IMG/VR virus record: IMGVR_UViG_3300035501_000524
Reading direction: 5' to 3' (one strand)
Length of the DNA stretch: 64,000 bases
Origin: a virus
Taxonomy: Duplodnaviria; Heunggongvirae; Uroviricota; Caudoviricetes
Positions within the stretch are counted from its first letter, which is position 1. Each line of letters opens with the position of its first letter. Under the pieces are notes generated by a model that saw nothing but the letters and a program-made list of their open reading frames with translations, was not told the DNA's origin and made no database searches. Below are positions 169 through 62,388 of this stretch, in pieces. Position numbers and translations under genes: made by a program.

Positions 169-309
169 TCAGTCTTCCTCTTCATGCTCATCCCTAAATC
201 CCTGCTCAGGGCAGTCGCGCCAAGGATTCCGCAACATGCAACCCCCATCTGCGTAGTAAGGGCAGTCCCAATTATCATCAATGCAATCCCAATCAACTGG
301 CTTTTTCAT
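169..309 (-). CDS. Small Cys-rich protein with acidic tail, 46 aa, family C (WDCP...G.C motif). The start was trimmed to the ATG after the conserved RBS, because the 66-aa ORF in the track reads through the leader.
   Basis: ATG at 307-309 preceded by GAGAGG. The upstream part of the track ORF translates the promoter leader as SNEREVKEM. Paralog of 12242..12394. Confidence 0.5.
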   Translation of the reverse strand: MKKPVDWDCIDDNWDCPYYADGGCMLRNPWRDCPEQGFRDEHEEED

Positions 310-340
310 TTCTTTTACCTCTCTTTCATTTGATACACTT

Positions 341-369
341 ATTTTACCATGAAAAAACATCGTTGTCAA
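341..369 (-). promoter_or_regulatory. Sigma-70-like early promoter: TTGACA (rc of 364-369), 17-bp spacer, TAAAAT (rc of 341-346)
   Basis: Hexamers read as the reverse complement. They are followed by the leader ATCAAATGAAAGAGAGG and then the ATG of 169..309. Confidence 0.6.
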
Positions 370-7024: not shown

Positions 7025-7028
7025 CGCC

Positions 7029-7057: not shown

Positions 7058-7080
7058 TAGGCAATTTAGACAAAAATTTA

Positions 7081-7125
7081 GAGTCAAGTTTATGCAACTT
7101 GACTCTTGACTTTTTACTTTTATTT
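7081..7125. terminator. Hairpin GAGTCAAGTT-tatgc-AACTTGACTC plus a T-rich run, the plus-strand terminator for the copy-D transcript; it also follows the stop of minus gene 7132..7341
   Basis: 10-bp perfect stem followed by TTGACTTTTTACTTTTATTTG on the plus strand, and by AAATTTTT on the minus strand. Confidence 0.5.
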
Positions 7126-7131
7126 GTCCCT

Positions 7132-7341: not shown

Positions 7342-7407
7342 TGTATCAACCTCTTTTCTTTTTTCTTTATTATACCACTGTTGACGCCCCCTGTCAAGGG
7401 GAAATTC

Positions 7408-7848
7408 TCAGAAGCTTCTGAGAATTTCCATGATGTTCTGAACATCGAAAGCATTTGCGCCCCATTCTGTTCTGTTTCTTTCTTCATCATCAAACAGGAA
7501 ACCTGTTCTGTCAGATACTACCGAACTTTTTGGTGTTCCATAAGTGACAATTTTGATTTCATCCCATTCAATACTCGGAAGATGTTTAGCAAGCCATTTC
7601 AGCTTTGTTGCGGTAACTTCTGCATTGAACTCTGGTGAACCACTCTTGGAAAGCCATGATACAATTCCGATTCTGTAACCGCTGTTCTGCAATCTGTGAA
7701 GCTGTCTTGCGAAACTTGAAAAGTTTAAAAGCGGTTTTGCAATTTCATAAGGTCTTGTGTTCGAGTTCATTAAATCTTCCAGCCATCCCTCTACTCCATA
7801 GAAGTTTGCGATTGTTCCATCCATGTCGAAATAAATTGTTCTTGTCAT
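7408..7848 (-). CDS. HAD-superfamily 5'(3')-deoxyribonucleotidase-like phosphatase, 146 aa
   Basis: N-terminal IYFDMDGTIANF (the DxDGT phosphoryl-acceptor motif of HAD and NT5C-type dNMP nucleotidases) and a later FDDEERN acidic motif. Confidence 0.5.
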   Translation of the reverse strand: MTRTIYFDMDGTIANFYGVEGWLEDLMNSNTRPYEIAKPLLNFSSFARQLHRLQNSGYRIGIVSWLSKSGSPEFNAEVTATKLKWLAKHLPSIEWDEIKIVTYGTPKSSVVSDRTGFLFDDEERNRTEWGANAFDVQNIMEILRSF

Positions 7849-7928
7849 TTTATCTACCTCTTTCTTTCTTTCTTTTGATAATATTATTATAACCTATTTT
7901 TTGGTAATTGTCAAGTATTTTCTTTTAA

Positions 7929-8048
7929 CTATTTTAAAGTTATTTTATAGCCATTAGCATCCTTTTCTACCACATACAAGAACTGATTTTCTTTTAAATA
8001 CTTTTCTGCCTTTTCAAAAGCTTCCTTAGTTGTGTACAAGATTGACAT
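7929..8048 (-). CDS. Small hypothetical protein, 39 aa (MSILYTTKEAFEKAEKYLKENQ...); not in the ORF track
   Basis: Promoter TTGACA-17-TAGAAT at about 8076-8106, RBS AAAGAGAGG, ATG at 8046-8048. Confidence 0.3.
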   Translation of the reverse strand: MSILYTTKEAFEKAEKYLKENQFLYVVEKDANGYKITLK

Positions 8049-8103
8049 TTCATTTACCTCTCTTTTAAGTTATACCTTATTCTATCACAATCTTTTTAGT
8101 TTG

Positions 8104-8718
8104 TCAAGAGGCTTTTTTAAAAGCCCCTTGAAAATAACTCTGATAAATTTTATCAGCTTCGATTAAATCAAAGTTCGTATTGATAAATCTGTCATTCTTT
8201 TTAAAAGAATTTGGATATCTTCTAATGTAAATTGAACGAAAATAGCTTTCTAACCCCTCTGCCGGAAAATCCATACAGTCATACACTCTGTGAATCACTG
8301 CCCTAACCGCGCCCATCTTTTTGTAAGTATCACTGTTTAATTCCTCTGTTAATCTTTTTCTAATTTCTCTAGTCGTAGTTCCAACTTTTGAACACAATAC
8401 GTTGTCATTATCATCGAAAAAGGTAAATAGATAACATTTTTGTTTTGCTTCATCCAGAAGTGATGGACAGTCAGAAGAAACTAGAATCTTTTCAGTATTT
8501 TTTGTTTTTCTTTTGGTTTCAATCTGACTAATTTCTTTTACCGCATTCTCGAAGGGGTCAAGAATATATTTTTTTGCTAACTCTTTGCAGTGTTCAAAAA
8601 TTGTCTTGCAAACTTCAAACCATTTCTTCTTCCAGTTCTTTGAAGTGTTTTCAAGTCTTTCTTTTGCGCCTTCAAAATCATCATTTTTTACATACCAATC
8701 CATTGATTTATTTGCCAT
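8104..8718 (-). CDS. Hypothetical early protein, about 204 aa (start at MANKSMDWYV)
   Basis: The conserved leader is translated as KERKKEM at the front of the track ORF. Promoter at about 8740-8775. Confidence 0.5.
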   Translation of the reverse strand: MANKSMDWYVKNDDFEGAKERLENTSKNWKKKWFEVCKTIFEHCKELAKKYILDPFENAVKEISQIETKRKTKNTEKILVSSDCPSLLDEAKQKCYLFTFFDDNDNVLCSKVGTTTREIRKRLTEELNSDTYKKMGAVRAVIHRVYDCMDFPAEGLESYFRSIYIRRYPNSFKKNDRFINTNFDLIEADKIYQSYFQGAFKKAS

Positions 8719-8786
8719 TTCTTTTTTCCTCTCTTTCATTTGATAATGTTATTATAGCACCGAACGTGCGGTTTGTCAACACTTTT

Positions 8787-8990
8787 TTATTTATTTACGA
8801 TTTTGTCAAGTAAAATTCCCAGATAGTATTCTGTAAAGGTACATGGACGCATTACAAAATCTTCTTTATTCCATTTATCATACTTAAGCGCCATTTTATT
8901 AAGCATCTGCTGTTTATTCCGAATTGGATATTTTGATTTAATAAAATAATTATTTGAATCCCCAGTAATTTTGACTAATCCGTAATACAT
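8787..8990 (-). CDS. Hypothetical small protein, about 67 aa (start at MYYGLVKITG)
   Basis: RBS GAAAGAGAGG before the ATG at 8988-8990. TTGACAGG at 9045-9052 (rc) serves as the -35. Confidence 0.4.
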   Translation of the reverse strand: MYYGLVKITGDSNNYFIKSKYPIRNKQQMLNKMALKYDKWNKEDFVMRPCTFTEYYLGILLDKIVNK

Positions 8991-9010
8991 TCTGTTTACC
9001 TCTCTTTCTA

Positions 9011-9199
9011 TCAATTATTATACTCTAACTCTTTCAACCTGTCAAGAGTTTTTTCAATATTTTTCTGATATTTATGTGTTCGATTCTCTCGACACCATTC
9101 ACATGAGCCATGATTCCGACATTGACAATCAATTGCCTTTGCTCCTCTATACATTTTTCTATGTTCTTTTCCGCTCATTATTGCCTTTTCCATGCTCAT
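9011..9199 (-). CDS. Small Cys-rich zinc-ribbon-like protein, about 62 aa (CQCRNHGSCEWC)
   Basis: C-x-C...C-x2-C spacing. Leader ATCAAAAGAGAGGAG before the ATG. Confidence 0.45.
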   Translation of the reverse strand: MSMEKAIMSGKEHRKMYRGAKAIDCQCRNHGSCEWCRENRTHKYQKNIEKTLDRLKELEYNN

Positions 9200-9266
9200 T
9201 GTTTTATCTCCTCTCTTTTGATACATTTATTATAACAGAAGGGGTTGAACTTGTCAACCCCTTTTT

Positions 9267-9713
9267 TTAAAATTTTTCTGTAAAAATTACATAACCTTCA
9301 CGATAACCGCCGAAACAATCATCAAATTCTTTGTCACTACCTTCAATTTCATAATCGTTAATAAGATAATTAACTAACTGATTTCTAAATTTACGAATCC
9401 ATTTTCTATCTTTTCTTGCAAATTCTTTCATTTTATTATTCCAGAGGAATGTTCTTGTATTAACTTCCAGACCATCAGAATCAAAAGTCTCACAAATTTT
9501 TGGAATGTTTCTGTCAAGAACCTCTTTAGCCTGCTCCTCAGACCACACAAGCTTTTCGCCCTGTTTCTCTTTATATTTTTCAACTACTCGATATCCAACA
9601 TAGAGAGGATACAGAATCACTCTCATAACCTTGTAGCCATTCTCATTCCACCATTCTCTAACAATGTGTTCTCTTTTTACCTGTCTTGCATTCATCATTT
9701 CCTCAAATCTCAT
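9267..9713 (-). CDS. Hypothetical early protein, 148 aa
   Basis: ORF with promoter TTGACG-17-TATAAT at about 9745-9778. Confidence 0.5.
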   Translation of the reverse strand: MRFEEMMNARQVKREHIVREWWNENGYKVMRVILYPLYVGYRVVEKYKEKQGEKLVWSEEQAKEVLDRNIPKICETFDSDGLEVNTRTFLWNNKMKEFARKDRKWIRKFRNQLVNYLINDYEIEGSDKEFDDCFGGYREGYVIFTEKF

Positions 9714-9797
9714 TTTATTTACCTCTCTTTCTATCCTTACCTTGTAAATACATTATAGCATAGGTTTGTGAGTACGTCAAGCTTTTTTTAATTTTTT

Positions 9798-9935
9798 TTA
9801 ATTCCAATCATATTCCATGGCATCCTCATAATCTATATTATGACGCTTACACCAATTTTTAAAATTTTTTACTGAACCGCTTGCAATTACTACATCAATA
9901 TATTCTTCTGTTGTTAATTCATCAATTTTTCTCAT
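9798..9935 (-). CDS. Hypothetical small protein, about 45 aa (start at MRKIDELTTEEY)
   Basis: The leader is translated as SKEREVNKM at the front of the track ORF. Confidence 0.35.
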   Translation of the reverse strand: MRKIDELTTEEYIDVVIASGSVKNFKNWCKRHNIDYEDAMEYDWN

Positions 9936-10003
9936 TTTATTTACCTCTCTTTCTTTTGATAGTATTATTATAACGCCTTTACGTTCATTTGTCAATACTT
10001 TTT

Positions 10004-10210
10004 TTAAATTAGTTGAAAACAATTCATGATGTTAACGTAACTATTGCAAGAAAATTCTCTAACTGTTTTTGATAAAAATTTCAACATGATTTTTTTAACA
10101 ATAGTTTCTGGTAGAGTTTTTATCATTTCCCTTTCAATAGTATTGTAAATTCCATTTGGTAATTCATACATCTTCATGGTGTCAAACTCTTCTATTGTCA
10201 ATAATCTCAT
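10004..10210 (-). CDS. Hypothetical small protein, about 68 aa (MRLLTIEEFDTMKMYELPNG...)
   Basis: Promoter TTGACT-17-TATAAT at about 10232-10262, leader ATCAAATAAAGGAAGAGG. Confidence 0.45.
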   Translation of the reverse strand: MRLLTIEEFDTMKMYELPNGIYNTIEREMIKTLPETIVKKIMLKFLSKTVREFSCNSYVNIMNCFQLI

Positions 10211-10379
10211 TTTCAAGTTCCTCTTCCTTTATTTGATGATATCATTATACCACCACCCATTCCAGAAGTCAAGCAAAAATTGCACAAAAATTAAGTAAAA
10301 ATTTTGGTTATTTTTTCCTATTGTGCAAAGTGACGAAATTTCGGGATTCCGACCGGAAAATATTTGTGCAATCTGCCTA

Positions 10380-10408
10380 TTGACAAAATTGCGGGGTGGT
10401 GGTATAAT
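10380..10408 (+). promoter_or_regulatory. Repeated-element copy E: plus promoter TTGACA (10380-10385), 17 bp, TATAAT (10403-10408), driving GC hairpin 10418-10445 and then the bidirectional terminator hairpin 10464-10485
   Basis: Consensus hexamers on the plus strand within the minus-strand gene block. No ORF downstream. Confidence 0.5.
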
Positions 10409-10483
10409 TGAAAATTCCGGCCGCAAGGACAGTGCGCGGCCGGTCAAAAATTGAAACAAAAAAGAGCTAATTTCTTAGCTCTT

Positions 10484-10657
10484 TCACTTAAATATCAACT
10501 TAATAATTATCACCGCAACCCAAACCACAAAGGCCAAACCCCAGGTGAATGTAATGAACACTCCGGCAAACTGAAGAACAAACAGCAAAAGCCAAAGCAA
10601 GCCCGCAGTAAATAAGAAGTCAAGTAGTAATGTAAATAATACTGTTAGTGCTAACAT
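10484..10657 (-). CDS. Small hydrophobic membrane protein, 57 aa (two predicted TM helices); not in the ORF track
   Basis: ATG at 10655-10657 after AGAGAGGAGAAAAAG. An unusually long leader of about 100 nt, GC-rich, follows the promoter at 10758-10790. Confidence 0.4.
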   Translation of the reverse strand: MLALTVLFTLLLDFLFTAGLLWLLLFVLQFAGVFITFTWGLAFVVWVAVIIIKLIFK

Positions 10658-10787
10658 GTTCTTTTTCTCCTCTCTTTTGGAGGCTGAGAGCCTTTCCTCG
10701 GCATCGCCTCGTGTTCAAGACAACACTGGTACTTTTGGCTCCCGACACCTCTTTCTTGATGATTTAATAATACCACACTTTTGGTTA

Positions 10788-11036
10788 TTAGTCAAGCCTT
10801 TTTCTTGTTCTATTTACAGATTCAAGTAAACATGCATCAGCGAAAAAATAAATCACATGAGACCATTTTAAAGATTCTTTTGCATAGACTAACAAATCTT
10901 CTTCTGTTGGATTCTCTGGAATGCCTGATTTTCTCCAAGTGTCAATACTTTCTTGGCACTCTGTATTCATTACGTATTTCTCCATCTGTTGGAGCAAATG
11001 AAGTCTTATTTCTATTATTTCTTCCTTGCTATACAT
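10788..11036 (-). CDS. Hypothetical small protein, about 82 aa (start at MYSKEEIIEIRLH); its stop codon lies inside the -35 box of the next promoter
   Basis: ATGTATAG start/stop overlap with the upstream small gene. Confidence 0.45.
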   Translation of the reverse strand: MYSKEEIIEIRLHLLQQMEKYVMNTECQESIDTWRKSGIPENPTEEDLLVYAKESLKWSHVIYFFADACLLESVNRTRKRLD

Positions 11037-11169
11037 TGCGCTCCTCCTCTTGCTTAACAATGAACTGTAATAGTTCTATTAAGTCCTTTACATCATCTAT
11101 TGTCCCTATCTCAATGGCGTGTTCGCTATCACAACCATAGAAAATTTTATTATCTTGTTCAATGTTCAT
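11029..11169 (-). CDS. Small hypothetical protein, 46 aa (MNIEQDNKIFYGCDSEHAIEIG...); not in the ORF track
   Basis: RBS AGAGAGGAGAAGG. Start overlaps the stop of the upstream gene (ATGA). Confidence 0.3.
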   Translation of the reverse strand: MNIEQDNKIFYGCDSEHAIEIGTIDDVKDLIELLQFIVKQEEERNV

Positions 11170-11309
11170 TTTTCCTTCTCCTCTCTAAGAATTTTATTAA
11201 TGAGGTTTTTGATTTCTTTTAAATCTTCCAAATCGCAGTAAACTTTGTCGCCCCAACCGCCTTTAATTGTGTATGGATAATTTTTATCGTCGCTTCTTTC
11301 GATTGTCAT
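11166..11309 (-). CDS. Small hypothetical protein, 47 aa (MTIERSDDKNYPYTIKGGWGDKVYCD...); not in the ORF track
   Basis: Promoter TTGACA-17-TACAAT at about 11340-11372, leader ATCAAAAAGAAAAGGAG. Confidence 0.3.
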   Translation of the reverse strand: MTIERSDDKNYPYTIKGGWGDKVYCDLEDLKEIKNLINKILREEKEK

Positions 11310-11384
11310 TGTATGCAACTCCTTTTCTTTTTGATAATGTTATTGTATCACAGGGGCTGACATTTGTCAACCCCTTTTTTGAAA

Positions 11385-11798
11385 TTATTTCTGACTGATG
11401 TTAAAATCATCATTTCTATCATACAGATAGTTTGACATGAAGTCTGTTTCATCACAACCATTTACCATCATCAGAGAATACTCTTTATCTCCAAAACCAT
11501 AGAGAAGCTGTCTAATTGTTTTACCCTTTGCATAAGCATAACCGCATTCCCATGCTGTCCCGCTGTCTGAATACATCCCGAAGTTGAGAACCCACACTTC
11601 ATCAGCTTTGTCGATTGCGTCAACATCCTGCTGGAAAACCTTCCTACCCCATGTTGCATTGTCTAAATCCCACGCATTTTCAATTTCATGTTCTATTGGA
11701 GCGTAAACTTCCAAACCTTGCGCGCGCATCTTCTGGAGAATTTGAACATACATTACTCTTTCATTATTTTTGAACCATGGACTTGCTAAATAAATCAT
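11385..11798 (-). CDS. Nucleoside 2-deoxyribosyltransferase-like protein (NDT/RCL family), about 138 aa
   Basis: N-terminal MIYLASPWF, matching the IY.AGPWF motif of the NDT family, plus a later D.D..D...G..SDSGTAWECGYAYAKGK block resembling the family's catalytic-Glu region. Confidence 0.55.
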   Translation of the reverse strand: MIYLASPWFKNNERVMYVQILQKMRAQGLEVYAPIEHEIENAWDLDNATWGRKVFQQDVDAIDKADEVWVLNFGMYSDSGTAWECGYAYAKGKTIRQLLYGFGDKEYSLMMVNGCDETDFMSNYLYDRNDDFNISQK

Positions 11799-11987
11799 TG
11801 TATCAACCTCTTTCTTTTTTGATAATATTATAATATCATATTTTTTGGTAATTGTCAATAGTTATTTTTCACGTTTTAGGTTTGGACTTAATGCCCAAAC
11901 CTAATGTAGTGATTCATCCAGTTTTCGCTGAACTGCTCTTTGAACTCTTCCGCATACTCTGTATTATAACCCCTTCTGGGGCTTTTG

Positions 11988-12170
11988 TCAAGCCCCTTTT
12001 TCAAGAACTTTTATTAAATCTTCCTTTACGCAAAAGGTTCTTTTATCTCTCTTAACTGAAAAAGGACAGTTCATACAACCAATTCCAATACAGTTAGGCT
12101 CAATTAAAAGTTCGATTGCCTTAATCTCTTCTTCGTCCAGAAGTCCCCTTTTAACAACAACAGTTTTCAT
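11988..12170 (-). CDS. Small Cys-rich protein, about 60 aa (CIGIGCMNCPF...C)
   Basis: Leader AAAAGAGAGGAATTAAAAAG before the ATG at 12168-12170. Confidence 0.4.
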   Translation of the reverse strand: MKTVVVKRGLLDEEEIKAIELLIEPNCIGIGCMNCPFSVKRDKRTFCVKEDLIKVLEKGA

Positions 12171-12241
12171 CTTTTTAATTCCTCTCTTTCTTTTGATGTA
12201 TTTATTATAGCATGAAGGTTGACGTTTATCAACCCCCAATT

Positions 12242-12394
12242 TTAATCATCCTCTGTTTCCCAATATTCATCATCTTCATCCCAGAATGCCGCGAAATCAT
12301 CACATTCTTCTATTGGATTATCAATTCCGCAAGTTCCATCTTTCTTCCAGTGGGGACAATCCCAACCATTAACAGGACAATACACTTTCTTCAT
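12242..12394 (-). CDS. Small Cys-rich protein with acidic tail, 50 aa, family C (NGWDCPHWKKDGTCG...EECDDF...DDEYWETEDD); not in the ORF track
   Basis: Promoter TTGACA-17-TATAAT at about 12420-12455. Shares the WDCP...G.C...acidic-tail pattern with 169..309. Confidence 0.4.
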   Translation of the reverse strand: MKKVYCPVNGWDCPHWKKDGTCGIDNPIEECDDFAAFWDEDDEYWETEDD

Positions 12395-12463
12395 TTTTAT
12401 CAATTCCTTTCTTCTTTTGATATTATCATTATAACATGGATTGACTTAATTGTCAACAAGAAA

Positions 12464-12937
12464 TTATAATTTCTTGTTGATTTCTGTTACATTGTATTTC
12501 ACATGATATTTCTGCAAAATATCTTTGATGATAGCACTTTCTTCTCTGGTCTTACTGAAAATGTCGATGTTGTAATAGGTTTCATCTTTGTAAACTACTT
12601 CACCACAAGTATAACTAACTGAGAATGGTTCTAACTTGTTGACTAACTCTTTATCTTTTGAAGTAACTGAGATTTTCCACAAACAATCTTTCTTGCATTT
12701 TTCCATGAGCCAAATTGACGCATACACACCAATTAAATTAGTTAAGATGGTTACCGTAACAGTGATACCTAAGTCAAGACTAGCTAACTGTTTAACCACA
12801 ACCGCGTAGAATCCGTAGGACAGTGCGTTGATTGCCGCCGCGGTCTTTTTACCTGCGCGCACGGTTAAGATTGATTTCATTGTTGACAGCATTACATTGA
12901 TTAAACTACATGTAAAAAATATTATAATTGCTTGCAT
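12464..12937 (-). CDS. Membrane protein, about 157 aa: N-terminal transmembrane segments and a C-terminal soluble domain
   Basis: Start at MQAIIIFF after GAGAGAGGAG. The hydrophobic N-terminal half is read directly from the translation. Confidence 0.5.
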   Translation of the reverse strand: MQAIIIFFTCSLINVMLSTMKSILTVRAGKKTAAAINALSYGFYAVVVKQLASLDLGITVTVTILTNLIGVYASIWLMEKCKKDCLWKISVTSKDKELVNKLEPFSVSYTCGEVVYKDETYYNIDIFSKTREESAIIKDILQKYHVKYNVTEINKKL

Positions 12938-13008
12938 TTCTTTTATTCTCCTCTCTCTTGGAACTATAATTATTATACCCCGAAAGGGGTTATTTGTCAA
13001 CCCCTATT

Positions 13009-13386
13009 TCATTTATTTCTTAACATTTTAATTTCATTTTTGATTGCATTAATAGCTTCTTCACATTCAGCGATTTTCTTTTTCTTAGTTGTTTCTTTCA
13101 TTGTTTTACTTGCATAGATTCTATTTTCTTCTGCAAACCATCTATTCAGACTACGCGTTTTGAATTCAATAGTTCTCTTCTGAGAAGCTAATTCCCTTGC
13201 CTTTTTCTCTTCTTTGTTGTCGCCTCTAACCTCTACGATTTCTACCATTGCTACAGTTGCAATTCCATTTTCATTTGTTGAGATGGTTTTAAAATAATCT
13301 CCTACGTGATATTTTTTAGCTTCTTTATTAGAAATAGTTGCTACTACGTATTCTTCATGACCATTTCTTGCGATAATCTCTTTCAT
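13009..13386 (-). CDS. Hypothetical early protein, 125 aa, Lys-rich C-terminus
   Basis: ORF with promoter TTGACA-17-TATAAT at about 13430-13465. Confidence 0.5.
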   Translation of the reverse strand: MKEIIARNGHEEYVVATISNKEAKKYHVGDYFKTISTNENGIATVAMVEIVEVRGDNKEEKKARELASQKRTIEFKTRSLNRWFAEENRIYASKTMKETTKKKKIAECEEAINAIKNEIKMLRNK

Positions 13387-13482
13387 TTTATTCCACCAAA
13401 TCCCTTTAGGATTTCCCTTTCTTTATTATGTAATTATTATACCATGGGGCTGACCTTTTGTCAACCCCTTTTGGAAAATTTT

Positions 13483-13908
13483 TTAAAATAATTTCGCAAT
13501 ACCTCTGTCTCTCAGATACTCACACAACTCCTCAGCAGAAAGCACCTCAGCAAGCTTTTTAATCTTCAAGCTTCTCTCTTCCTCATAGACTACCTTGACG
13601 CCAAGAGATTTGAACTGTTTCTCTGTACAGGTTTCAACCATTTCTGGATACTTAGGAACTGTAAAACGCAGAAGAGGTTTTTTCTTAAAGAATGTTTTAC
13701 CTATCTCAGCGTTCATGATTATTCCGCTCTCTACAATCTCCTTAGCATCTTCAAAGCTAGTAATTTCATCAATTTCAAAGCTTCGTTCTTTGGCTTCTTC
13801 TTCCTCTAGATAGAAATAATGGTTATAGATGTTAGTTGGCATCCAGTTCTTCTCTCCATTAAGTTTAATGTATGTGCTATGGCTGTAAATCTTCTTCATT
13901 ATCATCAT
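13483..13908 (-). CDS. Hypothetical early protein, about 140 aa; exact start uncertain because of the MMIMKK cluster
   Basis: Promoter TTGACA-17-TACAAT at about 13930-13965. Confidence 0.45.
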   Translation of the reverse strand: MMIMKKIYSHSTYIKLNGEKNWMPTNIYNHYFYLEEEEAKERSFEIDEITSFEDAKEIVESGIIMNAEIGKTFFKKKPLLRFTVPKYPEMVETCTEKQFKSLGVKVVYEEERSLKIKKLAEVLSAEELCEYLRDRGIAKLF

Positions 13909-14081
13909 GCCCTTTCTTATCTCTTTTGATGATACTATTGTATCACACATAGCTTACTTTGTCAACGTCTTTTTTCACAAAAATAACAAGCTGTTTTTGT
14001 GCAAGTTTCACTGTGTTAAATTTTTAACGATCTTGCCCCTGCGGTCCGAACGTAGAAAAAAGAAAAGGCGGATTTCCCGCC

Positions 14082-14300
14082 TTATTCTTCCTCTTCTTCT
14101 TCCCACCCATCATCAAGCAAGCTAAACATCAACCTGTCAAGCAGGTCTTCAAGCTGAACACAAACCACGCTGAAACCAAGTCCGCAAAGACCACCTACCA
14201 AAAGAGACCAAATAGACAAGCCTGCGTAACCCCATGCAAGACCAGCTCCCAGAAGTACACAAATAACAGCCGTAATTTCAAACCTTGTTTTTTCGTTCAT
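14082..14300 (-). CDS. Small membrane protein, 72 aa: two predicted TM helices and an EEEEE tail
   Basis: Promoter at about 14352-14386 and a purine-rich (AAAAG)n leader. Confidence 0.5.
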   Translation of the reverse strand: MNEKTRFEITAVICVLLGAGLAWGYAGLSIWSLLVGGLCGLGFSVVCVQLEDLLDRLMFSLLDDGWEEEEEE

Positions 14301-14375
14301 TTCTTTTTCCTCTTTTCTTTCTTTTCTTTTCTTTTCTTTTTTACATTATTATAATATCATATTTTTTGGTAATTG

Positions 14376-14576
14376 TCAATACCTTTTTTCACGTCTTGTT
14401 ACAAGAACTTTATTCCCGTCTATCTCCTGAATACATACCTCATTTAAAGCCCCTGTATAGTGTATAGCTAATAGGGTATCTTCAGCAGACAGGGTGTGAT
14501 TCTCTGCTAGTGTATCTCCTGTATCTGTATCTATTAGTCTTTCCCAGTCTTCACTCTTAATTAGTGTTACTCTCAT
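14376..14576 (-). CDS. Hypothetical small protein, about 66 aa (start at MRVTLIKSEDWERL)
   Basis: ORF in a compositionally less AT-rich segment. Confidence 0.35.
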   Translation of the reverse strand: MRVTLIKSEDWERLIDTDTGDTLAENHTLSAEDTLLAIHYTGALNEVCIQEIDGNKVLVTRREKRY

Positions 14577-14632
14577 AGTATCATCCTTTCTTTGGCTTGC
14601 TATCATTGTGATAGCAAGCCTTTATCGCTTGC

Positions 14633-14896
14633 TTAGTGTGCATTGATGTATGTCACTATCTCATCATCTGTTATGTCCTCTGTGCCCAGGCTGTCCATGA
14701 CCAGTGTTACCCTGTCGCCCATGCTCATAGCTACATCTTCCATCACCCAGAGATAACCATCTGTATCTTCCAGCCCTACATACTGTACACCATCATACTC
14801 ATTGACCTCATACACTACAGCCTTCACTGTGTACATGTCTGTCTGTGCTGTGCTACCTGCCATCATCATTGCCATTGCTAATACCATTGCTTTCAT
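14633..14896 (-). CDS. Small secreted protein, about 87 aa, with a predicted signal peptide (MKAMVLAMAMMMAGSTAQTD)
   Basis: Hydrophobic N-terminus followed by A.T. Promoter TAGACA-17-TATAAT at about 14912-14945, overlapped by a perfect 15-bp inverted repeat. Confidence 0.45.
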   Translation of the reverse strand: MKAMVLAMAMMMAGSTAQTDMYTVKAVVYEVNEYDGVQYVGLEDTDGYLWVMEDVAMSMGDRVTLVMDSLGTEDITDDEIVTYINAH

Positions 14897-14968
14897 CATC
14901 GTCTATCGACTCCTTTCTTTCCTTACCTTGTAAACACATTATAGCACACACACTGCTCCCTGTCTACT

Positions 14969-15012
14969 GGCAGATTGCACAAACTTCATCATACATCTTT
15001 GTGCAATCTGCC
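14969..15012. promoter_or_regulatory. Perfect 15-bp inverted repeat GGCAGATTGCACAAA-N14-TTTGTGCAATCTGCC; operator-like, made of TTGCACAAA half-sites
   Basis: Read directly. It sits between the minus promoter of 14633..14896 and a plus-strand TTGACA-17-TATAGG promoter at 15015-15043. Confidence 0.5.
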
Positions 15013-15049
15013 TATTGACACTCACTAATTACAACATTATAGGAATGTG

Positions 15050-15223
15050 ATGATTAGCAAGCGTGCATGCCTCTTGGATCGAGAAATATTGAGCCGTCAC
15101 GTCAATCGAAAATTCGGTCCATCTCCTGCGTCAATGGCCCGGTGCGCAGCGCTCGCGCGACACGCCTCTCAGAAAACGCGACAATACGTTTTAGACATTT
15201 TTTCCGAGATAGTTTTGAAATAA
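15050..15223 (+). CDS. Candidate 57-aa basic protein on the opposite strand inside a GC-rich island (MISKRACLLDREILSRHVNRKFGPSPASMARCAALARHASQKTRQYVLDIFSEIVLK)
   Basis: Plus-strand promoter TTGACA (15015-15020), 17 bp, TATAGG (15038-15043). AGGA is 5 nt before the ATG. GC content is much higher than the surrounding phage sequence. Low confidence; the region could instead be a non-coding RNA. Confidence 0.2.
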   Translation: MISKRACLLDREILSRHVNRKFGPSPASMARCAALARHASQKTRQYVLDIFSEIVLK

Positions 15224-15367
15224 AAAATCATTAGACTGAATGATGCTTAGTGGGGGGTGTATTTCGGGAGAAAAAATTTTTTCATTTTGAATTTGATATT
15301 CCTCTGGCCATAATTCCCACCAAATCGATTTCAGAAACGAGATTACGATATTATCTCTTTCAAAATC

Positions 15368-15910
15368 CTATTTCTCTTCTTCTGGCTCTTCTTTATCTAC
15401 ATAATAAATTTTATCAATTTCAGGATTTTCAAAATTAGGTTTCCTATCCTGATATACTAAGTCCTCTATTTCTCGGCCCCAATGCGGATACAAAAAAATC
15501 TTAATTCCTTTTTCTTTTGCATATTCAATCGTTTCGTATGTTCCGCCTTCTTCAATACCATCCCAAACCGCAATCAAAATATCTGAATGGTCAACCATCC
15601 ACTTGTCTCTAAAGCCATAAGAATCTTTTCCGTCATTATATTGCGGATACAAAAAAATTACATTTCTAGCGCTTTCCATTAAATTAATCTCTTTATCATG
15701 AAAAGTTTTTCTCCAACTTGGATAAATACATGTATAAGGAATTTTATTATACTTTGCGCATTCTGCCGCAATTTGATCTACTCCTTGCGCCATTCCAGTA
15801 AAAAATTCTTCCGGTCTAATTTCTTTCAAAGTATCTTCAATCCAATTTCGAACATACCACTCATGTCCAGTTAACCTTCCAGGTCTATGCCCGGTTATCA
15901 TTGCTCTCAT
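15368..15910 (-). CDS. SLOG-superfamily (YpsA/DUF1273-like) Rossmann-fold nucleotide-binding protein, 180 aa
   Basis: Motifs MITGHRPGRL, FFTGMAQGVDQIAAE and ILIAVWDG..GGT match the YpsA/DprA/LOG-like glycine-rich nucleotide-binding pattern. Recognised from the motifs. Confidence 0.45.
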   Translation of the reverse strand: MRAMITGHRPGRLTGHEWYVRNWIEDTLKEIRPEEFFTGMAQGVDQIAAECAKYNKIPYTCIYPSWRKTFHDKEINLMESARNVIFLYPQYNDGKDSYGFRDKWMVDHSDILIAVWDGIEEGGTYETIEYAKEKGIKIFLYPHWGREIEDLVYQDRKPNFENPEIDKIYYVDKEEPEEEK

Positions 15911-16174
15911 TTACCCTTCAATAACCTCCTGTAGTTCAGTTGGAATTTCTACACCAAGTTCTTTTAAAACTTCTGCGGCTGCCAAATATTTCCCATCTAC
16001 CGATCCATAAGGCGCCAACAAAATATAATCCTTTCCTTCAATTTCTGCGGTAAAAAATTCCATCTGATTATTTTCTGAATTTATATACATGCGCGCCCGC
16101 AAACTTTTAGGAATTGTAATTCTTCCTAAATCATCAATTTTTTTTACTACATTTTCCGGTTTAACTACTACCAT
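15911..16174 (-). CDS. AbrB/MazE/SpoVT-family swapped-hairpin DNA-binding protein, 87 aa
   Basis: N-terminal KIDDLGRITIPKSLRARM matches the canonical D.LGR..IP.E.R AbrB-N motif. Confidence 0.65.
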   Translation of the reverse strand: MVVVKPENVVKKIDDLGRITIPKSLRARMYINSENNQMEFFTAEIEGKDYILLAPYGSVDGKYLAAAEVLKELGVEIPTELQEVIEG

Positions 16175-16563
16175 TATTCATTCTCCTTTTTCTCATTCAA
16201 TGTCCAACATTTTTTATTAAATAGACTACAATTTAAATTACATTGACCTCCATAGCCTTCACAAGGATGAAGCTCTTCCAAAAGAAAATCAAGACAGTGA
16301 TTGTGCGCGGTCTTGATATCCCACATCATGCTGTCCCAGCCCCATTCCTCGAAAACTCGTCGCGCAATATATTCATCTCTCATTTTAATATATTCTTCTG
16401 TTGAAACTTTGATTTTATTATCATCATCTTTGTTTTCTTTTTCTTTTTCTTTTCCAAATAAATTTCTAAAAAATGGATTTGCGATATTTTTTTCTTTAGC
16501 TATTTTTGTAAAATCGCTACTATATTTTACTCTTGCGGCCCCACTTCCACTTAATACTACCAT
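16174..16563 (-). CDS. Hypothetical protein, 129 aa, Cys/His-containing C-terminus (HNHCLD...HPCEGYGGQCNLNC)
   Basis: ORF translationally coupled to the flanking genes by ATGA-type overlaps. Confidence 0.5.
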   Translation of the reverse strand: MVVLSGSGAARVKYSSDFTKIAKEKNIANPFFRNLFGKEKEKENKDDDNKIKVSTEEYIKMRDEYIARRVFEEWGWDSMMWDIKTAHNHCLDFLLEELHPCEGYGGQCNLNCSLFNKKCWTLNEKKENE

Positions 16564-16793
16564 TTTATATCTCCTCCACTATCATCATCATTATCCCATC
16601 CTTCTGGAAGAATAACATTTAAAATCGCTTCTAATATATTTACTATTGCGAAAAAAGGACCTCCAATAATAAAAATTAAAAATACTATAATTTGATCTTT
16701 AAAAGATAATTTTGCCATTACTGGGGCATACTCTAATAGTATTATACTTGAAATAATGAGCCATAAAATTTCTATGAAAATAAATCCCTTCAA
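16557..16793 (-). CDS. Small membrane protein, first gene of the leftward early operon; probable TTG start after GGAAGGGAG
   Basis: The minus promoter at 16825-16853 lies inside the longer track ORF, so the true start must be downstream. TTG at 16791-16793 is in frame with an RBS 8 nt upstream. Confidence 0.35.
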   Translation of the reverse strand: MKGFIFIEILWLIISSIILLEYAPVMAKLSFKDQIIVFLIFIIGGPFFAIVNILEAILNVILPEGWDNDDDSGGDIKW

Positions 16794-16824
16794 ACTGTAA
16801 GCTCCCTTCCTATTTCTTACTTTT

Positions 16825-16853
16825 ATTATAACAAAAATTTTAGGTTTTGTCAA
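16825..16853 (-). promoter_or_regulatory. Leftward early promoter: TTGACA (rc of 16848-16853), 17 bp, TATAAT (rc of 16825-16830)
   Basis: Its -35 box shares the palindrome GTCAAAAAATTTGAC (16849-16863) with the rightward promoter. Confidence 0.6.
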
Positions 16854-16858
16854 AAAAT

Positions 16859-16887
16859 TTGACTTTGCCCAAAAATTCTGGTATACT
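16859..16887 (+). promoter_or_regulatory. Rightward promoter of the structural gene block: TTGACT (16859-16864), 17 bp, TATACT (16882-16887)
   Basis: Nearly identical to the promoter at 43682-43710 (TTGACTTTGC.[C/G]AAAA[A]TT.T.GGTATA.T). The -35 is embedded in a palindrome. Confidence 0.55.
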
Positions 16888-16962
16888 AATATTAGAGAGT
16901 GGAGGTGACCTAACATAATAAAGTTAGATTATACATTAGAAACTCCTGTAGAACGAAACGAG

Positions 16963-17973
16963 TTGGTAAAACAAATTCTGGAAGAAAATCCAGAACCAAA
17001 TGATAAATATTTAGAAATTCTTGCCGACTACTTAGTTCTTTGTATGGAGAAACAAGAAAAGAAAGAACGTAAAATTATTACGGAAAATCGAATGACTACA
17101 GTTAATAAGAGAGAAACATCATTCGAGGGGCTTGTTTCCCAGCTTGAAAATGGCGAAGATGGTATTTATAATTTAATAAATGAAAGTAAAACAACAATTT
17201 TTCAACCAAAAGTAAAGATAACCAAAAAAGATTTAGAAGAAATCCAACCCTTAAGACAATTAAAAGAAGCCATAGATATTTGGGAAGCAAAACTAAAAAG
17301 AGCAGAGGGCAAGGATGCTTTTATTATAAAGAAAGCTTTAATTGAGATGCGCAAAGATCAATATATTATTAAAAATGCGTATCGTAAACCAATAGTAATG
17401 ACAAAATTTGTCCGCTCAAAAATGCCGACAAAATTAGAAGAATCATTTTCTTTTGATGCCGATGGATATATTATTCCAGAAGGCGTTTCACTATGTGATC
17501 CAAAAGTCTGTTCTGCTATTTTATGTAATTATTCAAGACTAAAAGAAGATTCTTGGGGCCACCATGATAGTGATTTATGGTATCTCATGGATGATTTTGA
17601 TTCAATTTCTGGACGAGCCCTTGAAGAATATCCAATGTATAGAAAAATCGTTGAGTGTAAGATTGATGGATTACAAAATGTTGAAATCCAAAAGGAACTC
17701 AAAGATGAATTTGGCATTACGCATAGTCTAGAATATATTTCATCTCTTTGGCGAAAGAAAATTCCAAATTTAATAGCATCTCAAGCTGAAGATGAAACCC
17801 TTGATTGGTATTTCTTAACACAAGAAAAAGGCAAATATAAAAGATGCAGTAGATGCGGCGAGATTAAGTTGGCGCATAATAAATATTTTAGTAAGAATAA
17901 AACAAGTAAAGATGGTTTTTATTCTATTTGTAAATGCTGTAGAAATTCAAAAACAAAGGCCAAGAAAGCTTAA
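16963..17973 (+). CDS. Hypothetical protein with a C-terminal Cys4 zinc ribbon (CSRCGEIK...CKCC), 336 aa; the start is probably a non-ATG codon (TTG at 16963 or upstream)
   Basis: First gene after the rightward promoter. RBS GGAGGTGA at 16901-16908. Confidence 0.55.
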   Translation: MVKQILEENPEPNDKYLEILADYLVLCMEKQEKKERKIITENRMTTVNKRETSFEGLVSQLENGEDGIYNLINESKTTIFQPKVKITKKDLEEIQPLRQLKEAIDIWEAKLKRAEGKDAFIIKKALIEMRKDQYIIKNAYRKPIVMTKFVRSKMPTKLEESFSFDADGYIIPEGVSLCDPKVCSAILCNYSRLKEDSWGHHDSDLWYLMDDFDSISGRALEEYPMYRKIVECKIDGLQNVEIQKELKDEFGITHSLEYISSLWRKKIPNLIASQAEDETLDWYFLTQEKGKYKRCSRCGEIKLAHNKYFSKNKTSKDGFYSICKCCRNSKTKAKKA

Positions 17974-18016: not shown

Positions 18017-19210
18017 ATGGCAGAAAATTCAGTTTTCTATTGTGATAAATGTAAGAAAACTATGCGGGCTGATGAATTCTATGGCTCGAACAATTTAATA
18101 AAATATCCAAATGGAAAATTAAATCAATGTAAAAAATGTATTACCATGCATGTGGATAATTGGAATCCAGAATCATTTTTGTGGATTTTACAAGAATGCG
18201 ATGTTCCTTATATTCCAGATGAATGGGATAAATTGTTAGCTTCGTATGCGCGCGACCCCAGTAAGGTTACTGGTATGACAATTTTAGGTAGATATTTATC
18301 TAAAATGAAATTAAAACAATTTAAAGATTATCGTTGGGAGCATACTGAGTTTTTACAAGAATTAGCTAATCATAAAATTGAAGAAGCTATGAAACGACAA
18401 GGGTATGATGCGGCTGAAATCGCGCAAGTTATTTCAGAAAAACAGCTTTCAGTTCCAGAAGGTGGATATGCTGAACCTGTGTATGAAGAACCGGCAGTGC
18501 CGCAATATTATACTGCAAATGAAGATGAGGATTATTTTGATCGGTCTAATGGAGATGATTCTTTAGACTTAACCGATGAAGATAGAACTTATTTAAGACT
18601 AAAATGGGGAAAAACTTATAAACCAGAAGAGTGGGTAAAGCTGGAACAGCTTTACACTCGTATGACTGAATCATACGATGTCCAGGGAGCTGGACATGAG
18701 GATATTCTGAAGCTTGTGTGCAAGACTTCTATTAAAGCTAATCAGCTTTTGGATATTGGCGATGTAGATGGCGCCCAGAAGATGGTTAAAATGTATGATT
18801 CACTAATGAAGTCTGGTAAATTTACTGCGGCTCAGAATAAAGCTGAAAATGGTGAATTTGTAAATTGCATTTCTGAATTAGTCGAAGTTTGTGAAAAAGA
18901 AGGATTTATCCCTAGATATTATGTAGATGGACCAAAAGACAGAGTTGATGAAACTTTAGCAGATTTAAAGAATTATACTCATTCTCTTATCGTAGAAGAA
19001 ATGAATCTTGGTAACTTGATTGAATCTGCCGTTAAAGAAATGGCAAAAGAGGAATCTAAGGAAGAGGATGAAGATATTGAAGATGAATTAAGCTATGATG
19101 AAATTGATGAATTAAAAGATCAAGATTTTGAAGATTATAATCAATTCCTTGAAGATGAAGAGATTAGTGATGAAACTATCAATGAATTTCTGAAAGGTGG
19201 AGACGTATAA
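18017..19210 (+). CDS. Putative terminase small subunit / DNA-binding packaging protein: N-terminal zinc ribbon (CDKC...CKKC) and a highly acidic C-terminal tail
   Basis: It lies immediately upstream of the large terminase and overlaps it (ATAATGG). The assignment rests on position and architecture. Confidence 0.3.
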   Translation: MAENSVFYCDKCKKTMRADEFYGSNNLIKYPNGKLNQCKKCITMHVDNWNPESFLWILQECDVPYIPDEWDKLLASYARDPSKVTGMTILGRYLSKMKLKQFKDYRWEHTEFLQELANHKIEEAMKRQGYDAAEIAQVISEKQLSVPEGGYAEPVYEEPAVPQYYTANEDEDYFDRSNGDDSLDLTDEDRTYLRLKWGKTYKPEEWVKLEQLYTRMTESYDVQGAGHEDILKLVCKTSIKANQLLDIGDVDGAQKMVKMYDSLMKSGKFTAAQNKAENGEFVNCISELVEVCEKEGFIPRYYVDGPKDRVDETLADLKNYTHSLIVEEMNLGNLIESAVKEMAKEESKEEDEDIEDELSYDEIDELKDQDFEDYNQFLEDEEISDETINEFLKGGDV

Positions 19211-20943
19211 TGGCATTACAGGATTTAATAGACCTATCAGGTAATCAAAAAAAGATTGGTCTTTCCGAAGAACGTGTGCGAGCCATTGTCCCAATCGCTA
19301 GAAAGTATATCTCCTTCTGGAGAGAATATCCAGACTTATTCATTGATTTTTTATTAGAGAAAGGCGGAAATCCACAGGATTTCCATTTCTTCTTTTATCA
19401 GAGAGTATTTTTGCGCGCGGCGATGCGGCATCAATATGTTTATGCAGTATTCCCTCGAGCTTATAGTAAATCATTCTTATCTATCATGGTTTTAATGTGT
19501 AGATGTATTCTTTATCCAAAATGTAAATTATTTGTTACTTCTGGTGGTAAGGAACAGGCTGCGGGCATTGTAAAAGAAAAAGTTCAAGAAATTTGCACTT
19601 TAATACCGGCCTTTAAACGAGAAATTAATTGGGGCCGTGGTGTAACCCTTGAAGGTAAAGATTATTGTAAGTATGTATTTAATAATGGATCTTACTTTGA
19701 TAATATTGCGGCTAGAGAAAGTTCTCGTGGTAAGCGTCGACATGGCGGTCTAATAGAGGAGTGTGTAGGTGTAGATGGAAAGATTCTTTCTGAAGTTATT
19801 ATTCCTACCATGAATATTTCTCGTATGTGTATGGATGGTTCTACGCATCCAGAAGAGCAATTAAATAAATCTCAAATTTATATTACGACTGCGGGATGGA
19901 AAAATACATTCCCTTATGATAAATTAATTCAGCTTCTGGTATGGCAAATTGTTAAACCAGAGAAATCTATGGTTTTAGGCGGAACTTATCGTATTCCAGT
20001 TTTAGTAAAACTTCTTGATAAGAATTTTATTCGAGATCTAAAAATGGATGGAACTTTCAATGAATCTTCATTTGATCGAGAATATGAAAGTATTTGGTCG
20101 GGAACTGTAGAAGATGCTTTCTTTAATGCTGAAACATTTGATAGAAATAGAATCCTTAAACAGCCAGAAAAAGAAGCATCTGGTCGAATTGGTAAATCAA
20201 GTTTTTATGTTATTTCACTTGACGTTGGCCGTAAGGGCTGCGATTCTGTTGCATGTATTTTTAAGGTAACACCGCAACCGCAAGGAGTTTCAACTAAACA
20301 ATTAGTTAATATTTATACAATGTCTGATGAGCATTTTGAAGACCAGGCTATAAAAGTTAAAAAATTATTCTATAAATATAAAGCAAGACGTCTTGTTATA
20401 GATGGTAATGGTATGGGTATTGGGCTTCTGGATTATATGGTTAAACCGCAAACTGATTCAGAAACTAATGAATTCTATCCAGACTTTGGAGTTTATAATG
20501 ACGATGAAGGATTTTATAAGAAATATAGAACTGTAGATTGCGAACAAGATGCAATTTATGTTATAAAGGCTAACGCGCCAATTAATACCGAAGCACATGC
20601 AAATGCGCAAACTCAACTTTCTTCTGGAAAGGTTAAATTCTTAATTGATGAGCGTGTTGCTAAGACAAAATTATTGGGAACTAAAGTAGGTCAGAATATG
20701 AAACCAGAAGAAAGGGCAGAATATTTAAAACCATTTACTTTAACTTCCATATTAAAGGAAGAGATGATGAACCTTCGTGAGGAAAATGAAGGTGTTAATA
20801 TTATCTTAAAACAAGCAAATAGAGGTATCAGAAAAGATAAATTTTCTGCCTTTGAGTATGGATTATATTATATAAAACAAGAAGAAGATAATAAGAAAAA
20901 GAAGAAAAAGTTTAATGCTAAGGAATGGAGATTCTTAAATTAA
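19210..20943 (+). CDS. terL: Terminase large subunit, 577 aa
   Basis: A Walker-A-like motif FPRAYSKS and an ATPase N-half plus nuclease C-half arrangement typical of TerL, directly upstream of the portal gene. Confidence 0.75.
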   Translation: MALQDLIDLSGNQKKIGLSEERVRAIVPIARKYISFWREYPDLFIDFLLEKGGNPQDFHFFFYQRVFLRAAMRHQYVYAVFPRAYSKSFLSIMVLMCRCILYPKCKLFVTSGGKEQAAGIVKEKVQEICTLIPAFKREINWGRGVTLEGKDYCKYVFNNGSYFDNIAARESSRGKRRHGGLIEECVGVDGKILSEVIIPTMNISRMCMDGSTHPEEQLNKSQIYITTAGWKNTFPYDKLIQLLVWQIVKPEKSMVLGGTYRIPVLVKLLDKNFIRDLKMDGTFNESSFDREYESIWSGTVEDAFFNAETFDRNRILKQPEKEASGRIGKSSFYVISLDVGRKGCDSVACIFKVTPQPQGVSTKQLVNIYTMSDEHFEDQAIKVKKLFYKYKARRLVIDGNGMGIGLLDYMVKPQTDSETNEFYPDFGVYNDDEGFYKKYRTVDCEQDAIYVIKANAPINTEAHANAQTQLSSGKVKFLIDERVAKTKLLGTKVGQNMKPEERAEYLKPFTLTSILKEEMMNLREENEGVNIILKQANRGIRKDKFSAFEYGLYYIKQEEDNKKKKKKFNAKEWRFLN

Positions 20944-61401: not shown

Positions 61402-62388
61402 TTGGCATATGTATCTAAATATACTGGATATGTAAAATTTTTACGTGGAACTCCTGACGCTTGGAATAGCCTGGCTGAGAAAGATAAAGATACTCTTTAT
61501 TTTATTTCTGAGACAGATGCTACTACTGGAAAATTATACCTTGGAGAAAAGTTAATTAGTGGAGCTATTTCTGGTTCTTCTTCTTTAAAAGATCTATCAG
61601 ATGTAGCACTTGCTACAACGATTCCTGGAAACTCAGTTATTGTTTATAATGATACTACTGGTAAATGGGAAAATAAACCATTAACTTCTATTCTTTATGA
61701 TATAGTTTCAGTAATGCAAGGAGCCACTTCTACGACAGATGGCCGATCTGGATTAGTTCCTACTCCTAAAGCCGGTCAAGAAACATTATTCTTACAAGGA
61801 AATGGAGAATGGGCTGATCCTACATCAACATTGACCGCAACTATAAATGGATTAATTGGTAGCGATACTGGTAAAACAATTCGAGATATAGCTGCTTCTG
61901 AAGTTGCCAAAATCGTAGCAAATGCGCCAGAAGATTTTGACACTTTAAAAGAAATTTCGGATTGGATCGCAGAGCATGAAGAAGTTAGTGATTTATCTAA
62001 TATCCTTAAAAAAGTTGATAGTTTAGATTTAATTGTTAATGGAAATGATGAGACTCAAGGCTTAGTTGCTGTTACTTCTGATTTAAAAACAGAATTATAT
62101 GGAGATGGCACTGATGATAAGCCTGGCTTAGTTGCTGTTACTTCTGATTTAAAAACAGAATTATATGGAGATGGCACTGATGATAAAATTGGTCTGATTG
62201 CTACTACATCTAATTTGAAAGTGGAATTGTATGGTGATGGCACAGATGAAAATCCAGGTCTGATTGCTAACTTTAGTATATTGCAAGCCACTGTTGGTGA
62301 TCTAAGCACCGAAATGAAAGACTTAGATAAACGAGTCGATGCTATTGATGAAAGATTGAAATGGCAAGACTTAGTTGAAGAAGATTAA
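61402..62388 (+). CDS. Tail fibre-like protein, 328 aa, with a tandem 20-aa repeat (GLVAVTSDLKTELYGDGTDDK, 3-4 copies); TTG start
   Basis: RBS AAGGAGG 7 nt before TTG 61402. Near-identical 60-bp direct repeats at 62055-62280. Confidence 0.5.
   Translation: MAYVSKYTGYVKFLRGTPDAWNSLAEKDKDTLYFISETDATTGKLYLGEKLISGAISGSSSLKDLSDVALATTIPGNSVIVYNDTTGKWENKPLTSILYDIVSVMQGATSTTDGRSGLVPTPKAGQETLFLQGNGEWADPTSTLTATINGLIGSDTGKTIRDIAASEVAKIVANAPEDFDTLKEISDWIAEHEEVSDLSNILKKVDSLDLIVNGNDETQGLVAVTSDLKTELYGDGTDDKPGLVAVTSDLKTELYGDGTDDKIGLIATTSNLKVELYGDGTDENPGLIANFSILQATVGDLSTEMKDLDKRVDAIDERLKWQDLVEED

Follow-up and report, generated by a model that had tools for sequence, protein, structure and literature searches.

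The GC- and CpG-rich island at positions 15044-15230 of this phage DNA is best read, with moderate confidence on our part, as lineage-specific non-coding filler of foreign composition that would sit at a module junction and be either non-functional or only passively transcribed. Its composition departs from that of the window (the whole 64,000-nt stretch that was analysed), neither coding nor RNA-structure signals were found in it, the slot that it occupies is filled differently in other phages, and divergence from its relatives falls in a gradient across it. The functional parts of the locus would flank the island instead, with a repeated palindromic operator cassette on its left (14961-15020) and a conserved non-coding element, which we call X, on its right (15252-15373).

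Based on its gene content, the DNA appears to belong to a large siphophage, found in gut metagenomes, of the SPbeta / Geobacillus E3 / Enterococcus EF1 type. At 19210-20943 it encodes a 577-aa terminase with 46-61% identity to the counterparts in these phages and 36% to a protein annotated as YonF in Brevibacillus phage Sundance, and the 397-aa protein adjoining the terminase carries a Pfam YonG_N domain. Positions 1-16900 are an early block made up of small minus-strand genes, and most of these genes have a TTGACA-N17-TGnTATAAT promoter of their own; a search for tRNA and tmRNA genes found none. The island sits within this block in a 468-nt gap (14900-15367), between the stop of a 180-aa gene and the start of an 88-aa gene. 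The features of the locus are as follows.

14633..14899, minus strand: 88-aa gene on the left flank, present in the open reading frame list and called as a gene in independent assemblies
14938..14967, minus strand: promoter of the 88-aa gene, with TAGACA, a spacer of ~17-18 nt and a TG-extended TATAAT
14961..15020, no strand: palindromic operator cassette, with perfect 15-nt arms (14969-14983 and 14998-15012) and imperfect 23-nt arms
14984..14997, no strand: 14-nt spacer of the palindrome, reverse-complemented with respect to relatives L001-L004
15015..15043, plus strand: promoter-like site, with TTGACA (15015-15020), a 17-nt spacer and a weak -10, TATAGG (15038-15043)
15036..15041, minus strand: perfect TATAAT overlapping the plus-strand TATAGG, with TTGCTA only 13 nt upstream
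15044..15230, no strand: GC- and CpG-rich island, defined by composition and restricted to this phage lineage
15050..15223, plus strand: 57-codon open reading frame from ATG 15050 to TAA 15221-15223, peptide MISKRACLLDREILSR..., judged not to be a gene
15075..15121, plus strand: candidate hairpin of 9 + 5 base pairs, 47 nt long and pairable in all four distinct sequences
15252..15373, no strand: conserved non-coding element X, with GGGGGGTGTATTTYGGGA, the A/T palindrome GAAAAAATTTTTT and CTCTCTCCAAAAG-like (CTCTCC-AAAAG-like) repeats
15368..15910, minus strand: 180-aa YpsA/SLOG-family gene on the right flank of the gap

The 180-aa protein matches Pfam YpsA at E = 2.5e-5, which is below the curated cut-off, and PHROG 289 at E = 2e-17, and its gene evolves with a dN/dS of 0.02-0.06. 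The 88-aa gene has homologues in this phage lineage only, encodes a signal-peptide-like N-terminus and shows a dN/dS of 0.32-0.41 with a third-position excess; in a promoter scan its promoter scored 11/12 matches plus the TG extension.

The original prediction had picked out the island for its GC content, and the compositional anomaly is real. Positions 15040-15230 have a GC content of 0.466, peaking at 0.52, versus a window average of 0.33, which places them in the top 1.2% of all 190-nt windows and in the top 4.7% of those inside the early block. CpG is the stronger signal of the two, with 18 CpG per 190 nt in the island (mean 3.3, sd 2.3), the second highest count of the 64-kb window, and an observed/expected ratio of 1.74 versus 0.64. 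The island forms the right end of a wider GC-elevated and fast-diverging patch, from ~14035 to 15210, that includes two real genes of 72 and 88 aa, and further CpG-rich patches coincide with the other operator hubs of the window. No similarity was found between the island and the rest of the window or other hub-bearing loci, its internal repeats do not go beyond chance matches of 8-10 nt, and restriction-site palindromes show no notable clustering in it except for GCGC and CGCG. The maximum of the window, 19 CpG per 190 nt, is reached by a second non-coding CpG-rich stretch at positions 1-170, at the window edge beside a 66-aa gene (169..369, minus strand), which is unlike the island and contains hairpin-like GC palindromes. 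The proposal that the island was recently acquired from elsewhere holds in part: the atypical composition is compatible with a foreign origin, but a recent capture from a sequenced host is unlikely, since exact 23-31-mers of the island, two different 23-mers among them, are absent from 185,579 species genomes (two scans). They are also absent from JGI metagenome contigs (two scans), and a blastn search of positions 14600-15400 against 50,697 phage records gave no match.

The 57-codon frame had been proposed as a protein-coding moron, and the evidence speaks against this claim. No match to the 57-aa product was found in Pfam or PHROG, and a word-indexed protein search recovered no relatives of either of the two open plus-strand frames (the 57-aa frame against 5.8 billion clusters). 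An exhaustive phmmer search of 1.84 billion representatives returned for it a single match, a 2100-aa repeat protein, rejected as spurious because its score is summed from weak repeats. A tblastn alignment with IgaA of Salmonella, which lies in frame with igaA (45% over 44 aa, E = 1e-3), is likewise put down to chance, as the exhaustive search brought up no IgaA-family protein at E <= 0.001 and the DNA aligns poorly. GC content by codon position is flat (0.52/0.45/0.48, versus ~0.45/0.33/0.25 in the real genes of this phage), and the codon adaptation index of the frame is 0.33, versus 0.29 and 0.35 in the shifted frames. In four independent assemblies, gene callers placed no gene in the 468-nt gap. 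Frames of at least 58 aa, the length that a GTG start at 15047 would give, arise in 33% of dinucleotide shuffles of the 347-nt stretch 15021-15367, and a single-sequence AlphaFold2 model of the product reached a pLDDT of 62.5 and a pTM of 0.33, with three helices.

The pattern of substitutions points the same way. Comparison with two relatives gives a dN/dS of 0.5 for the frame (0.5-0.7 over the relatives compared) and differences by codon position of 3/2/3, whereas in the neighbouring genes dN/dS is 0-0.13 and changes are strongly in excess at the third position. The fourth lineage, L024, contributes V18I, F22L and H38R along with one synonymous change, which brings the total to about nine non-synonymous and four synonymous events, the neutral expectation. 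The conservation of the frame in related phages, one of the checks suggested at the outset, thus has two sides: the 57-aa frame stays open and its ATG intact in all four distinct sequences, which at ~5% divergence carries little weight, but there is no sign of selection on the protein. A second, overlapping plus-strand frame of 55 aa was rejected, as it has gained a stop or lost its start codon in relatives; a 41-aa minus-strand frame fragment had no match; and no small hydrophobic open reading frame occurs in any frame of 15020-15370. The 57-codon frame appears, on these patterns, to be a by-product of a GC-rich and stop-poor composition.

A phage moron is an added gene of atypical composition that brings along a promoter and a terminator of its own, as described in lambdoid phages such as HK97. 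The island resembles one in its atypical composition, its intergenic site and the promoter-like site upstream, yet it differs in having no terminator and no coding evidence, in a sub-standard promoter, and in that no close relative lacks the segment.

The promoter that had been assigned to the island is there to the letter, with TTGACA, a 17-nt spacer and TATAGG, and is kept in the relatives, but its -10 is an outlier. TATAGG matches the consensus at four of six positions, has no TG extension and ends in G, and this can be set against the 56 exact TTGACA sites of positions 1-17000, 39 of which are followed by a -10 matching at least 5/6: all 39 have the final T and 30 have the TG extension. 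Site 15015 is not a typical promoter of this phage and may be a weak or factor-dependent one. The AGGA proposed as a ribosome-binding site (15041-15044) overlaps the -10, so that it would not be part of a transcript started from this promoter and is unusable there. On the opposite strand, the perfect TATAAT at 15036..15041 has no usable -35 and is possibly a relic promoter; its 10-mer TTCCTATAAT also occurs in L017-L019, within the spacer of the equivalent minus-strand promoter.

If the site does work as a weak, operator-dependent promoter, the frame could still encode a real 57-aa basic protein on a leaderless mRNA starting at the A of ATG 15050, on the model of lambda cI transcribed from PRM. 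We judge this quite improbable, and consider it because the ATG lies exactly where such a message would be expected to start, 7 nt downstream of the -10, in the window as in all relatives. PRM, from which the leaderless lambda cI mRNA is made, is weak and adjoins an operator; the present locus likewise has a weak -10, an operator immediately before the -35, divergent promoters around a single operator region, and an ATG placed where transcription would be expected to begin. The three helices of the predicted model and the four of four distinct sequences in which the frame is open, together with the breakage of the overlapping 55-aa frame in relatives, would also fit a protein. Yet, unlike cI, the frame shows neither selection nor homologues (in the cluster and phmmer searches, the IgaA match being taken as chance), and its start site is a prediction from sequence; its ~9 non-synonymous to 4 synonymous events, its flat codon-position GC, a codon adaptation index equal to that of the off-frames, the low confidence of the model, a length expected by chance and the silence of the gene finders all speak against it.

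The other original suggestion for the island, a structured non-coding RNA, finds no support either: nothing in Rfam matches the segment and it folds worse than shuffled sequence on both strands. A search of the whole window at the gathering score gave no Rfam match, and the best hits for 14850-15400 at E up to 10 were noise. On the plus strand, 197 of 200 shuffles fold better than the 247-nt stretch (z = +2.0), and on the minus strand its z is +1.4, while sub-windows of the segment give z values between -0.9 and +0.9. The one candidate, the hairpin at 15075-15121, has a folding z of -1.3; all of its cells are paired (100%) and two pairs switch between GC and GU with no double change, in four sequences that are ~5% apart and for which the controls are powerless. 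Its G-U pairs are possible on the plus strand only.

The operator next to the island is the clearest regulatory signal of the locus. Two divergent -35 boxes lie in the imperfect 23-nt arms of the cassette, TAGACA being read on the minus strand and TTGACA on the plus, and the palindrome, when folded as RNA, has a z of -8.1. The inverted repeat had been described as overlapping the plus-strand -35; its perfect 15-nt arms do span 14969-15012 as described, but they end 2 nt short of that -35, which falls only in the imperfect 23-nt extension. That the repeat is a genuine and recurrent operator is supported: the window holds 15 sites close to the half-site GGCAGATTGCACAAA, versus 2.05 expected by chance. 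They gather in five or six intergenic hubs, at ~3940, 4460-4640, 6800-6960, 10280-10380 and 14970-15010. The 23-nt unit TTTGTGCAATCTGCCTATTGACA (TTTGTGCAATCTGCC-N-ATTGACA) recurs in the window at 10363 (23/23 nt) and 4586 (21/23), and the unit, TTGACA included, is also found in six otherwise different IMG/VR viral contigs. It lies upstream of a good -10 and a gene in L009, L010, L012 and L013 and at window positions 10363 and 4586, and has no -10 behind it in L011, L014 and at window position 6873 (plus strand). Since the unit recurs with its TTGACA, sometimes with no -10, we take the TTGACA at 15015 to belong to the operator unit; it would mirror the opposite half of the palindrome, from which the 88-aa gene promoter takes its -35, TAGACA.

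The 14-nt spacer of the palindrome has changed orientation between relatives. Compared with L001-L004, the spacer of the window shows 12/14 mismatches when aligned directly and 2/14 as its reverse complement; the window, L021-L023 (identical to the window across 14886-15394) and L024 have it in one orientation, and L001-L004 in the opposite one (L001:4500-5060 and L024:520-1065 compared). The flip shifts the ATGAAG extension of the operator from one of the divergent promoters to the other, and could reflect either a hairpin-mediated mutational inversion or an active switch.

The closest precedent for this repeated operator would be SPBRE of SPbeta, a short element repeated at some ten promoter regions between genes, where the master repressor MrpR/YopR binds it and early and lytic promoters are controlled; binding of MrpR has been shown by ChAP-seq or EMSA, and spbT is among its targets (PMC10516654). 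Like SPBRE, the TTGCACAAA / TTTGTGCAA unit stands beside -35 boxes at five or more hubs, and like SPbeta this phage has YonF- and YonG-like genes. Unlike SPBRE, the unit is fused to the -35 and often forms an inverted pair with a 14-nt spacer. The likeness is one of arrangement, and it is by this analogy that we infer repressor binding here; the window contains no MrpR-like gene.

The hubs share further elements. The motif ATTTCGGGA occurs in four of them (window positions 4431, 6916, 10338 and 15261), in three of the four ~16-20 nt upstream of a TTTGTGCAA box, and may be a second protein-binding site. Operator-gated TTGACA-N17-TATAAT promoters followed within ~10 nt by GC-rich hairpins of the GGCCGG type occur at five sites:

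2367-2422, minus strand
3967-4056, plus strand
4505-4586, minus strand
6946-7025, plus strand
10363-10443, plus strand

At 2418 (minus) and 4586 (minus) the hairpin is followed by a T-run in the direction of the promoter itself. This layout would imply transcripts of ~35 nt or promoter-proximal attenuators. Several minus-strand early promoters (11345-11375, 13440-13470 and similar ones) have their -35 inside a GGGG...CCCC hairpin, which on the plus strand is followed by a T-run, a terminator-like arrangement that would halt antisense transcription between early genes. At 10380, a strong plus-strand promoter converges on a very hydrophobic 57-aa open reading frame (10484..10657, minus strand) with a good ribosome site and a long GC-rich leader, and the two units meet at a shared hairpin (10461-10488); the layout of 10363-10657 likely represents a pair resembling type I toxin-antitoxin systems. 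Such systems, with their antisense RNAs, are known in SPbeta-type prophages, for example bsrG/SR4 and yonT(spbT)/SR6.

The island occupies the position where other hubs have a short GC-rich hairpin downstream of an outward-facing promoter, and three of these hubs have strong outward-facing plus-strand promoters (3994, 6963 and 10380) pointing against early genes. For this reason we considered that the island might be an unstructured regulatory or antisense RNA of ~200 nt, made on the plus strand whenever the state of the repressor or activator lets the weak operator-side promoter fire; this RNA would oppose or pair with read-through transcripts of the SLOG operon or act in trans. Site 15015 has a perfect -35 and is conserved in relatives, the low predicted structure (z = +2.0) would suit action by pairing, the plus-strand-only G-U pairs of the hairpin at 15075-15121 would fit a plus-strand transcript, and the convergence of promoter 10380 on the hydrophobic frame offers a type I-like example in the same window. 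We nonetheless regard this reading as unlikely. The -10 has neither the invariant final T nor the TG extension, no plus-strand terminator-like site was found in 15220-15400 (only weak A/U hairpins), substitutions at 15050-15166 are near neutral, and the plus-strand units at the other hubs are compact hairpins, not 200 nt of unstructured RNA. Compared with type I toxin-antitoxin loci, the island shares a repressor-linked promoter aimed against neighbouring genes, but has no small hydrophobic frame opposite, no compact structured RNA and no shared terminator, while the hub at 10363-10657 has the full convergent layout.

A broader version of the same idea, to which we give very little credence, would see the hubs as portable cassettes, each with an operator, an outward promoter and a GC-rich cargo, the cargo being repressor-gated small RNAs or a leaderless micro-protein opposite the early genes. 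If this were true, no other cargo would be as large or as little structured as the island, which would be an undescribed kind of regulator, and the spacer flip could transfer the extended operator from one divergent promoter to the other.

Our preferred reading of the island as non-coding filler draws on the comparison with its relatives. The island is found only in four IMG/VR contigs (95-97% identity) and several near-identical assemblies. No empty site was found; all collinear relatives (L001-L004, L021-L024) have it. The original prediction had presented it as an insertion relative to other copies of a repeated element in the window, and we could not reproduce this: the hubs have only the operator boxes and ATTTCGGGA in common, in a different order, and every collinear relative has the island. 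Divergence from relatives is 15-17% at 14900-15049, ~7% at 15050-15166 and 0-1% at 15167-15367, and the low divergence continues rightward through the structural genes. This steady drop suggests that the island straddles a mosaic boundary. Within the structural module, three tandem 66-nt repeats (62-80% identical, 62025-62222) were noticed inside a 328-aa open reading frame (61402..62388). At ~5% overall, the island diverges more slowly than the synonymous sites of the two adjacent genes (dS 0.14-0.33), which could reflect weak constraint at the nucleotide level or, equally well, a recombination block.

On its right the island is bounded by element X, which runs over the stop codon of the 180-aa gene. 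The element aligns with a non-coding element in L011 with a local alignment score of 76, versus a null of 31.7 +/- 4.5, and is present in L011 and L016-L020 beside different genes. Its CTCTCTCCAAAAG-like repeats are ~36 nt long and iteron-like in relatives, it has no Rfam match, and its consensus fold is weak (-9 kcal/mol) with little covariation; it may serve as an origin, mark a boundary or act in regulation. In L011 and L016-L020 the slot between X and the next minus-strand promoter holds a non-coding stretch of 230-330 nt whose core is GC-rich. These fillers are related to each other (z = 12-26) but show no homology to the island (z = 0.3-2.2). We also tried the island as a diverged filler of the L017 type, on the grounds of a 20/26 match in the GC core and a shared ATTATAGGAA, and rejected it, the overall comparison giving p = 0.07-0.3 and z = 0.3-2.2. 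As the fillers between X and the promoter are unrelated to the island, the slot is variable between phages and the island would be the filling of this lineage. One of the related phage contigs (L018) also carries, at 2271-2491, a group I catalytic intron (Rfam RF00028, 91.7 bits) that is unrelated to the island.

The neighbourhood of X raises the question of whether the island acts as DNA, together with X and the operator, for instance as a replication origin, a packaging site, a regulator-binding cluster or a Chi-like cluster. Its extreme CpG density, the recurrence of CpG-rich patches at five operator hubs, its adjacency to an element with iteron-like repeats and an A/T palindrome in relatives, and its divergence below that of neighbouring synonymous sites would all be compatible with such a role. 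However, the island has no internal repeats or iterons above the chance level, its sequence is not common to the other phages with element X, and its first half gathers substitutions freely, and we hold this reading to be highly doubtful.

Mosaic phages are known to carry conserved boundary sequences at module junctions. The locus is similar in that element X and the operator units, both conserved, flank a segment that varies between phages and across which divergence changes sharply; it differs from described boundary sequences in that recombination is here deduced from sequence patterns.

Taken together, we propose the following scenario for the non-coding filler. A phage repressor probably binds the operator at 14961-15020 and gates the promoter of the 88-aa gene, as MrpR does on SPBRE. 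The variable slot between X and the next promoter would have taken up CpG-rich foreign DNA, left at the mosaic junction. A transcript of the SLOG gene would run into the island, as there is no good terminator ahead of it; the island would probably form the untranslated end of the SLOG-gene operon message and so be copied passively, on the minus strand. That the island has no function of its own would follow from the same reading.

This result removes a false candidate for a small gene or non-coding RNA, and leaves an island that is fairly ordinary. The real regulatory content of the locus would be the repeated palindromic operator, of the SPBRE/MrpR kind, in an uncultured gut phage. If the plus-strand transcripts of the hubs are real, the phage would have a set of repressor-gated counter-transcripts, including a likely type I toxin-antitoxin pair at 10363-10657, and among these counter-transcripts the island would stand out as unusual. 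Element X and the reversed operator spacer may prove better leads than the island itself.
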